From the NCBI RefSeq assembly GCF_003334405.1, contig NZ_QOWM01000036.1: a DNA stretch of 2,487 nucleotides; one strand, 5' to 3'. Positions 1,002 to 2,423 of the stretch are shown here, one piece after another. The notes beneath the pieces are model-generated. The model was not told where the DNA came from. It searched no databases and was given only the letters and a program-made list of their open reading frames with translations. The stretch comes from Escherichia coli (GTDB lineage: Bacteria > Pseudomonadota > Gammaproteobacteria > Enterobacterales > Enterobacteriaceae). The translations under genes and the position numbers were made by a program. Each line of letters begins with the position of its first letter. Position 1 is the first letter of the stretch.

Positions 1002-2153
1002 ATGAGACGAACATTTACAGCAGAGGAAAAAGCCTCTGTTTTTGAACTATGGAAGAACGGAACAGGCTTCAGTGAAATAGCGAATATCCTGGGTTCAAAA
1101 CCCGGAACGATCTTCACTATGTTAAGGGATACTGGCGGCATAAAACCCCATGAGCGTAAGCGGGCTGTAGCTCACCTGACACTGTCTGAGCGCGAGGAGA
1201 TACGAGCTGGTTTGTCAGCCAAAATGAGCATTCGTGCGATAGCTATTGCGCTGAATCGCAGTCCTTCGACGATCTCACGTGAAGTTCAGCGTAATCGGGG
1301 CAGACGCTATTACAAAGCTGTTGATGCTAATAACCGAGCCAACAGAATGGCGAAAAGGCCAAAACCGTGCTTACTGGATCAAAATTTACCATTGCGAAAG
1401 CTTGTTCTGGAAAAGCTGGAGATGAAATGGTCTCCAGAGCAAATATCAGGATGGTTAAGGCGAACAAAACCACGTCAAAAAACGCTGCGAATATCACCTG
1501 AGACAATTTATAAAACGCTGTACTTTCGTAGCCGTGAAGCGCTACACCACCTGAATATACAGCATCTGCGACGGTCGCATAGCCTTCGCCATGGCAGGCG
1601 TCATACCCGCAAAGGCGAAAGAGGTACGATTAACATAGTGAACGGAACACCAATTCACGAACGTTCCCGAAATATCGATAACAGACGCTCTCTGGGGCAT
1701 TGGGAGGGCGATTTAGTCTCAGGTACAAAAAACTCTCATATAGCCACACTTGTAGACCGAAAATCACGTTATACGATCATCCTTAGACTCAGGGGCAAAG
1801 ATTCTGTCTCAGTAAATCAGGCTCTTACCGACAAATTCCTGAGTTTACCGTCAGAACTCAGAAAATCACTGACATGGGACAGAGGAATGGAACTGGCCAG
1901 ACATCTAGAATTTACTGTCAGCACCGGCGTTAAAGTTTACTTCTGCGATCCTCAGAGTCCTTGGCAGCGGGGAACAAATGAGAACACAAATGGGCTAATT
2001 CGGCAGTACTTTCCTAAAAAGACATGTCTTGCCCAATATACTCAACATGAACTAGATCTGGTTGCTGCTCAGCTAAACAACAGACCGAGAAAGACACTGA
2101 AGTTCAAAACACCGAAAGAGATAATTGAAAGGGGTGTTGCATTGACAGATTGA
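1002..2153 (+). CDS. insI: IS30 transposase (DDE family, 383 aa)
   Basis: Uninterrupted 383-aa ORF. GGAGG at 989-993 lies 8 nt upstream of the ATG. N-terminal helix-turn-helix-like regions and catalytic motifs HWEGDLV, LTWDRGMEL and GTNENTNGLIR (E then R at +7). Protein and length match the IS30 transposase as I recall it. Confidence 0.95.
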   Translation: MRRTFTAEEKASVFELWKNGTGFSEIANILGSKPGTIFTMLRDTGGIKPHERKRAVAHLTLSEREEIRAGLSAKMSIRAIAIALNRSPSTISREVQRNRGRRYYKAVDANNRANRMAKRPKPCLLDQNLPLRKLVLEKLEMKWSPEQISGWLRRTKPRQKTLRISPETIYKTLYFRSREALHHLNIQHLRRSHSLRHGRRHTRKGERGTINIVNGTPIHERSRNIDNRRSLGHWEGDLVSGTKNSHIATLVDRKSRYTIILRLRGKDSVSVNQALTDKFLSLPSELRKSLTWDRGMELARHLEFTVSTGVKVYFCDPQSPWQRGTNENTNGLIRQYFPKKTCLAQYTQHELDLVAAQLNNRPRKTLKFKTPKEIIERGVALTD

Positions 2154-2423
2154 ATCTACAGTTGCTTTTTTTAATATATCTCGCTCAAGGCGAGCTTCAT
2201 TTAACGCCTTACGCAGTTGCAGAATTTCAGATTCCAGTTCAGCCACCGTGCGGGAACCAGGAGTACCGAGCCCTTTTCTGGCGGCGGTAACCCATTGTCC
2301 TAAAGTGCCTTCAGGAAGAGATAATCGGGAAGCGCCTTCACTGATCGAAAGTTGATTTTCAAGAACCGTTCTGACAGCTTCGGCTTTGAACTCTTTAGAG
2401 TAACGTTGGGTTTTTCTGCTCAT
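2073..2423 (-). CDS. IS3-family (IS600-like) orfA, 3' end disrupted by IS30; the open frame is chimeric, with 87 native codons (2423-2163) and a junction codon 88, then a 28-aa tail read from IS30 antisense sequence
   Basis: N-terminal helix-turn-helix-like region (LSISEGASRLSLPEGTLGQWV) and a leucine-rich region ending ERDILKKAT match IS3-family OrfA. The frame crosses the IS30 junction at 2160/2161 and stops at 2073. With IS30 removed, orfA would instead continue ...KKATAYFAQESLKNTR and stop at TAA (898-900), about 100 aa. AAGGAG ribosome-binding site 7 nt upstream of the ATG. Confidence 0.8.
   Translation of the reverse strand: MSRKTQRYSKEFKAEAVRTVLENQLSISEGASRLSLPEGTLGQWVTAARKGLGTPGSRTVAELESEILQLRKALNEARLERDILKKATVDSICQCNTPFNYLFRCFELQCLSRSVV
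2135..2160. repeat. IS30 right terminal inverted repeat (26 bp)
   Basis: Partner of 940-965, 23 of 26 matches. Contains a perfect TTGACA hexamer (2142-2147) pointing outward. Confidence 0.88.
2161..2162. repeat. Target-site duplication of IS30 (GT), right copy
   Basis: See left copy at 938-939. Confidence 0.8.
2166..2172 (-). promoter_or_regulatory. Programmed -1 ribosomal frameshift heptamer A AAA AAA near the 3' end of orfA
   Basis: Minus strand reads TTA AAA AAA GCA in the orfA frame. A -1 slip here reads KK-SNSV and, once IS30 is removed, continues in-frame into orfB. This position and motif type are characteristic of IS3-family elements. Confidence 0.7.

Follow-up and report, generated by a model that had tools for sequence, protein, structure and literature searches.

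A chimeric OrfA reading frame at an IS30 insertion in the frameshift window of IS600 in Escherichia coli

In elements of the IS3 family, OrfA is made from the upstream frame whenever the programmed frameshift fails to occur (PMC2909936; PMC3219604), and a regulatory function in transposition has been ascribed to OrfA of IS911 (PMC2909936). A 2487-nt stretch of E. coli DNA, which we analyzed as a whole and refer to as the window, contains a minus-strand reading frame that begins as orfA of IS600 and ends in sequence antisense to IS30. How did this frame arise, and could its product still regulate transposition? The first-pass annotation of the window had described the chimera and speculated that it might act on other IS600 copies in the cell.

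IS600 is split by a complete IS30 element

The window corresponds to one IS600 of 1264 bp, oriented on the minus strand and interrupted by a 1221-bp IS30 on the plus strand at 940-2160. The 2-bp target, GT, is duplicated and flanks IS30 at positions 938-939 on the left and 2161-2162 on the right. The distal part of IS600, comprising the end of orfA, orfB, and the right inverted repeat (1 to ∼29), occupies positions 1-937 of the minus strand. The proximal 327 bp, with the left inverted repeat, the promoter, and the first 263 nt of orfA, lie at 2161-2487 on the same strand.

We tested the insert for IS30 ends and for a target duplication, and both are present in the 1221-bp element. Its inverted repeats (IRL 940-965 and IRR 2135-2160) are identical in 23 of 26 positions, and its length equals that of the annotated IS30A and IS30D copies in K-12. 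The single transposase gene (1002-2153, plus strand) is intact and encodes 383 aa (WP_001254932.1); PGAP names it “IS30-like element IS30 family transposase”, and its product scores 276.9 bits on the NCBIfam model transpos_IS30 (NF033563; cutoff 80). The insert therefore shows all features used here to define IS30: a length of ∼1.2 kb, 26-bp inverted repeats, a single transposase of ∼383 aa, and a 2-bp duplication. An Rfam search of the whole window gave no match at E ≤ 1. The locus is a nested insertion, IS30 within IS600, and nothing that we found contradicts this reading. Its anatomy also confirms the earlier description of an IS3-family orfA joined to IS30 antisense sequence.

The interrupted IS600 has lost its frameshift product

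We rebuilt the native IS600 in silico by taking out IS30 and one GT. The resulting 1264-bp element fits the expected length of ∼1.26 kb, and its ends (TGAGGT...) match as inverted repeats in 20 of 30 positions. The rebuilt orfA encodes 100 aa, with the C-terminal end ...KKATAYFAQESLKNTR, and is identical to an entry of the protein collection (P0001, “IS600 ORF1-like protein”, at least 1000 contigs). The native C-terminus reconstructed in the first-pass annotation was thus right. A check against the reference OrfA revealed no natural ...VDSICQ... ending in IS600; the tail is foreign to the reference protein.

A –1 slip at the sequence A AAA AAA of the rebuilt element yields an OrfAB protein of 385 aa, which covers the NCBIfam model transpos_IS3 (NF033516) over its entire length (1-369 of 369) with 414.5 bits at a cutoff of 160. 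Upon removal of IS30, the frame arrangement of the IS3 family is therefore found: an orfA with a helix-turn-helix (HTH) and an orfB with a DDE/rve domain, which overlap and are joined when the ribosome slips by –1 at an A-rich site. In the interrupted copy, the ORF at 44-862 still reaches 334.7 bits on transpos_IS3, and PGAP annotates the distal half as a pseudogene (“IS3-like element IS600 family transposase”, missing N-terminus). The 327-bp proximal part differs by one mismatch from the K-12 MG1655 feature “insertion sequence:IS600” (insM).

The presumed –1 programmed frameshift site is an A7 run (A AAA AAA) at 2166-2172 on the minus strand, 5 nt upstream of the IS30 junction. RNA folding of the reconstructed native sequence predicts a 9-bp hairpin, GCGUAUUUU...AAAAUACGC, which maps to 903-936 on the minus strand of the window. 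In intact IS600 this hairpin starts 6 nt past the slippery run and, by analogy to other IS3-family elements, it presumably stimulates the –1 frameshift. The IS30 insertion point lies inside the 6-nt spacer that separates the A7 run from the hairpin. Because the insertion has moved orfB and the hairpin to a distance of 1.2 kb from the slippery site, production of OrfAB is no longer possible; slipping at the A7 run that is still present gives only a 106-aa product. The IS600 copy of the window is defective, since its OrfAB transposase is lost, and it would be dead unless mobilized in trans.

The chimeric reading frame

The chimeric orfA′ (2073-2423, minus strand, stop included) starts with ATG, encodes 116 aa, and ends with ...ILKKATVDSICQCNTPFNYLFRCFELQCLSRSVV. 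As claimed in the first-pass annotation, the orfA frame runs across the junction at 2160/2161 and acquires a 28-aa tail from IS30 antisense sequence, namely from IRR and the final 81 nt of the transposase gene. The count of 87 native residues has to be corrected. The orfA share is 263 nt (2423 down to 2161), i.e., 87 codons plus 2 nt, and codon 88 straddles the junction (AC|T). The change from ACA to ACT keeps the native threonine, so the chimera contains 88 native and 28 foreign residues. The tryptic peptide spanning the junction is ATVDSICQCNTPFNYLFR. The 116-aa protein exactly matches an existing database entry (P0002, “transposase family protein”, UniRef A0A0G9G9B8, at least 1000 contigs). 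PGAP assigns positions 2163-2423 to a “transposase; incomplete; missing C-terminus” and flags it as a pseudogene.

The HTH region is retained in full: Pfam HTH_Tnp_1 matches residues 3-75 of the chimera over model positions 2-75 of 75 (E = 3e-20). Heptad positions L63, L70, A77, and L84 are also kept. In this respect the chimera resembles IS911 OrfA, IS2 InsA, and IS3 OrfA, which are ∼100 aa long and carry an N-terminal HTH followed by a leucine-zipper-like coiled coil. In the chimera, unrelated sequence takes the place of the 12 residues at the native C-terminus, among them the final heptad position, with Ser instead of F91 and Pro instead of N98, and a complete C-terminal leucine-zipper-like multimerization region is therefore lacking. 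The tail is rich in Cys and Phe. An AlphaFold model gives a helix at residues 60-92 with a pLDDT of ∼85 and values below 50 for the tail (92-116); since this was a single-sequence model of poor overall quality (mean pLDDT 57, pTM 0.26), we took from it only that the tail is not predicted to be ordered with any confidence.

Over its last 81 nt, the chimeric ORF runs antisense to the 3′ end of the transposase gene of IS30, which is intact and convergent, and because of this overlap any conservation of the tail can be attributed to IS30 itself. Across genomes, the same breakpoint bears at least four different tails, with lengths of 28 aa in the window, 34 aa in insM and insN of K-12, and 25 aa in a related protein described below (P0004). 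This diversity argues that no particular tail is under selection. The 116-aa ORF arises mechanically from the insertion and not by chance.

Expression signals

The expression signals upstream of orfA are intact, as had been noted before together with the HTH region. Direct reading of the sequence shows an AGGAG ribosome-binding site (2430-2434, minus strand) 7 nt upstream of the orfA ATG. A σ70-like promoter site, TTAACG-17-TAGAAT, is located in the left end of IS600 (2444-2472, minus strand); in a promoter scan it was the only promoter-like site of the window, and it lies on the orfA strand. The same hexamers have been catalogued for K-12 insM as a “constitutive promoter” in a genomic SELEX with RpoD holoenzyme, in which RNA polymerase holoenzyme bound the insM region in vitro (PMC3946193). 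Transcripts of insN have been reported in expression studies, in which the copies are indistinguishable (PMC5289635; PMC4924334). Given the intact promoter-like site, the SELEX result for insM, and the insN transcripts, transcription of the chimera is plausible and indeed probable, and translation is possible.

We also considered a hybrid outward promoter based on the TTGACA of the right end of IS30 (2142-2147) and rejected it, as no acceptable –10 element is found at a distance of 16-18 nt. A terminator-like hairpin that might halt transcription coming from IS30 is present at 2180-2194 on the plus strand; such sites are not in excess in the window (three, compared with 2.6 in shuffled sequences).

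IS30 inserts at a predicted hot spot within the frameshift signal

On the coding strand of IS600, the target of IS30 reads AAAAAAAGCA[AC]AGCGTATTTT, or in its wider form GATATATTAAAAAAAGCA[AC]AGCGTATTTTGC; the duplicated dinucleotide is AC on this strand and GT on the plus strand of the window. Together, the A-run and the 5′ hairpin arm, which is rich in U, form this nearly palindromic target. Because of the near-palindrome made by the A-run and the U-run, the inverted repeat continues 12 bp past the ends of IS30 into IS600 on both sides, giving 38-nt arms that are 79% complementary. Natural hot spots of IS30 have been described as nearly palindromic sequences with a symmetric 24-bp consensus, which are attacked with a 2-bp stagger (PMC9333248; PMC12445084).

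We built a position weight matrix from seven IS30 half-sites, none of them located in IS3 elements, which gave a pattern of roughly AGAAAGGCnn; the LHS region of phage lambda was left out because its exact insertion point had not been placed. Among the 1240 positions of IS600, the real site received the highest matrix score, 13.98 bits compared with 7.47 bits for the runner-up. Judged by the inverted repeat and by this small in-house matrix, the site has the properties expected of an IS30 hot spot, i.e., ∼24 bp that are nearly palindromic and centered on the duplicated 2 bp.

The same preference is seen in other elements. We scanned viral contigs for the left end of IS30 and extracted the flanking sequences, and most of the distinct flanks are frameshift windows of IS3-family elements. 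At one of these loci (L015), IS30 is inserted in IS600 at the same dinucleotide and with the same AC duplication as in the window, but in the opposite orientation. In IS911 the target at the homologous position is GAAATATTAAAAAAGGCT[AC]CGCGCTC; an IS911-like variant is also hit there, as is a third IS3-family element with the target GACATATTAAAAAAAGCC[GC]GGCGTAC. At four further loci (L011, L016, L025, and L026) and in KpLE2 of K-12, unlike IS3-family halves flank a single IS30, which is the signature of recombination between IS30 copies. The first-pass annotation had missed this recurrent insertion at a hot spot in the frameshift window, which is a more informative feature of the locus than the chimera that it described.

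Recurrence in E. coli genomes and known parallels

We determined the prevalence of the insertion with 100-nt junction probes against 5426 complete E. coli genomes. The uninterrupted IS600 site was found in 1602 genomes and the junction of orfA with the left end of IS30 (IRL), i.e., the orientation opposite to that of the window, in 1284. The junction with the right end (IRR), which corresponds to the window, was present in 854 genomes, a count that probably takes in a remnant of O145/O157 type with 47 bp of IS30, which matches ∼97 of the 100 probe bases. IS600 broken by IS30 at one dinucleotide is hence about as widespread as the intact site, from which we conclude that the frameshift signal of IS3-family elements is likely to double as a hot spot for IS30. 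The event is recurrent and not unusual. Both orientations and several host elements prove multiple independent insertions of IS30; part of the many copies may have come about by inheritance, by homologous recombination among IS copies, or by mobilization of the composite.

The whole 2487-nt composite is present at 100% coverage in 156 of the 5426 genomes. All 25 carriers listed share one common site, between hchA and a porin pseudogene beside drpB, as read from two carrier records. One strain has an additional IS903B inserted in the IS30 of the composite. An exact search for the 46-nt right junction in one genome per species gave no match; the species representatives lack the junction, so that this search does not address its spread outside E. 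coli.

In K-12 MG1655, three such junctions exist (insN, insM, and insO). A close parallel is insM (b4561), a 327-bp IS600 stub abutting IS30D in KpLE2, whose sequence carries the one mismatch to positions 2161-2487 mentioned above. It shares with the window the breakpoint after AAAAAAAGCAAC, the promoter hexamers, a fusion ORF of 88 OrfA residues with IS30, and the annotation as a pseudogene. Because IS30 is inserted in the opposite orientation, the tail of insM comes from the left end of IS30 (VDSIGQRNSYVKTWGCGGFLNETNIYSRGKSLCF, 34 aa) and the fusion is 122 aa long. On its far side, IS30D adjoins IS911B, again at the same breakpoint, instead of the remaining IS600, which marks the insM locus as a recombinant hybrid.

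A second parallel is insN (IS911A::IS30A) in prophage CP4-6, annotated as “IS911A regulator fragment”. Here, too, IS30 is located in the orfA-orfB frameshift window, with the same offset of 263 nt in orfA, an AC duplication, and an 88-aa OrfA stub followed by an IS30-encoded tail, but the host is IS911 rather than IS600 and IS30 has the opposite orientation relative to orfA. The third case is the 113-aa “transposase” P0004, encoded next to the ure cluster in genomes of O145:H28 type. It is a fusion of IS600 orfA to the right end of IS30 at the same position, and its tail starts with VDSICQCNTPFNYLF like that of the chimera and differs at the end; in contrast to the window, only 47 bp of IS30 are left, followed by unrelated DNA, and the sequence before the junction is GCAGC instead of GCAAC.

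A literature search for nesting of IS600 and IS30, or for a hot spot in IS911 or IS600, returned IS inventories only. The relationship between IS30 and the frameshift windows of the IS3 family is implicit in the annotation of K-12 and may already be covered in the literature.

By-product, regulator, or passenger

How is the chimera best explained? We consider it very probable that the window represents a nested IS30 insertion at a natural hot spot of IS600 and that the 116-aa ORF is a by-product, the latter being the default reading. In the mechanism that we propose, IS30 transposed into the nearly palindromic target made by the frameshift A-run and the hairpin's U-rich 5′ arm. The insertion has duplicated AC and placed 1.2 kb between orfA with its slippery site on one side and the hairpin with orfB on the other. 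The orfA frame reads on into the right end of IS30 up to the first stop codon, giving a 116-aa ORF that keeps the IS600 promoter, the ribosome-binding site, the HTH, and three leucine-zipper-like heptads, followed by a 28-aa tail that would have no evolved function.

It is much less probable that the chimera is expressed and regulates intact IS600 copies in trans, and we regard such a role as quite unlikely. It could act by binding of the HTH to the left-end promoter or the inverted repeats, or its kept heptads could draw OrfAB into inactive heteromultimers. The intact promoter-like site and ribosome-binding site, the binding of holoenzyme to the equivalent insM region, the full HTH_Tnp_1 domain, and the four heptad positions within the predicted helix are all consistent with this view, as is the precedent of IS911 OrfA. 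Moreover, intact IS600 sites occur in 1602 of 5426 genomes, so targets would often be present in the species. On the other hand, the chimera has lost the last 12 native residues and has gained Ser at position 91, Pro at position 98, and a Cys/Phe-rich tail of low predicted order. For IS2, it takes no more than a single substitution within the coiled coil of four heptads to abolish binding and transposition (PMC3219604). The same OrfA stub is found with several unrelated tails, the overlap with the IS30 transposase gene would account for any conservation of this one, and PGAP calls the stub a pseudogene. In at least two of the 25 listed carriers, furthermore, the composite is the only match to IS600 or IS30 on the chromosome. 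A weak activity as a repressor or dominant-negative factor would be compatible with the intact promoter and HTH but is improbable. An extension of this idea would be antagonism between insertion sequences, in which IS30 homes to the frameshift windows of IS3-group elements, kills their transposase, and leaves OrfA stubs as trans-dominant regulators; of the possibilities weighed here, we find this one the least credible.

Alternatively, the 2487-bp IS600::IS30 could be a mobile composite that is moved in trans by IS600 transposase, with the chimeric ORF as a passenger. We judge this possible but rather unlikely. Both IS600 ends are intact in the composite, the window itself ends at them, and the exact chimera is found in at least four genomic contexts. 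At one locus in a prophage (L012), the identical composite lies between 3-bp direct repeats (CGC/CGC), the duplication size of the IS3 family. The common copy between hchA and yedS, however, shows no duplication (aga/tat), and an IS600 insertion at a given locus followed by a later IS30 strike on the hot spot would give an identical pattern. The occurrence of both IS30 orientations and of several IS3-family hosts at the homologous site speaks for independent insertions, and the hybrid IS3 halves around single IS30 copies indicate that recombination, too, shuffles the junctions.

As a by-product of IS30 insertion, the chimera is of little importance: it is ordinary, known in kind, and one of many truncated IS genes that are already catalogued in databases and treated as pseudogenes. 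More notable than the chimera itself is the hot-spot relationship between IS30 and the IS3 family, since a preferred IS30 target within the frameshift signal would bear on how IS populations limit each other. The relationship also matters for annotation, because such stubs are variously named “transposase”, “transposase family protein”, or pseudogene.

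Recurrent IS30 insertion in IS3-family frameshift windows

IS30 recurrently inserts into the programmed-frameshift window of IS3-family elements, a hot spot with the pattern ATATTAAAAAA[A/G]GCnn followed directly by the insertion point. It lies at 925-939 and 2161-2175 of the window and was also found in ten of the fetched loci (L013, L015, L016, L020, L022, L025, L026, L035, L044, and L047). The IS600 frameshift window carries IS30 insertions in both orientations, and IS30 has also struck the homologous dinucleotide in IS911, in an IS911-like element, and in a third IS3-family element. 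IS600 sites broken by IS30 occur in 854 and 1284 complete E. coli genomes, one count per orientation, and rival the intact site, which occurs in 1602. Across the left IS600/IS30 junction, immediately upstream of the IS30 transposase start, PGAP calls an 81-nt partial "hypothetical protein" pseudogene on the plus strand (925-1005, corresponding to 6925-7005 of L001, the common hchA-yedS copy), which is probably a junction-derived annotation artefact.

Rearrangements and possible mobility

Some single IS30 copies have one IS3-family element's half on one side and a half of another such element on the other, or sit between two inverted IS600 orfA halves (L011 3937-5560; L016; L025; L026; and the K-12 KpLE2 locus L047, 5126-7802). 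These arrangements imply past inversions or recombination between IS30 copies, each residing within a frameshift window.

In a prophage (L012 3934-6426), the complete IS600::IS30 composite of 2487 bp has a 3-bp CGC direct repeat on both sides. This pattern is compatible with two histories: the composite was mobilised, or IS600 was the first to arrive. The flanks of the common hchA-yedS copy (L001 5998-8490) read aga and tat, and this absence of a target duplication suggests an adjacent rearrangement.

Other contexts of the orfA fusion

Beside the urease cluster of O145:H28-type genomes, IS600 orfA is followed by only 47 bp from the right end of IS30 and then by unrelated DNA (L004 4001-4342; also L003, L005, and L006). 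The fusion point in orfA is that of the window's chimeric orfA, with a single base change ahead of the junction (GCAGC versus GCAAC). The product, the 113-aa protein P0004, is widely annotated as "transposase" and listed in 9487 collection blocks. In strain LR-58-1 (L002 4463-5521), IS903B lies within IS30 within IS600, a third nesting level. At L007 (4001-8351), an identical chimeric orfA adjoins a shf/capU/virK/msbB2-like gene set, assigned by Pfam content; here an IS66-family element splits the neighboring IS30, whose left end borders the third IS3-family element, not IS600.
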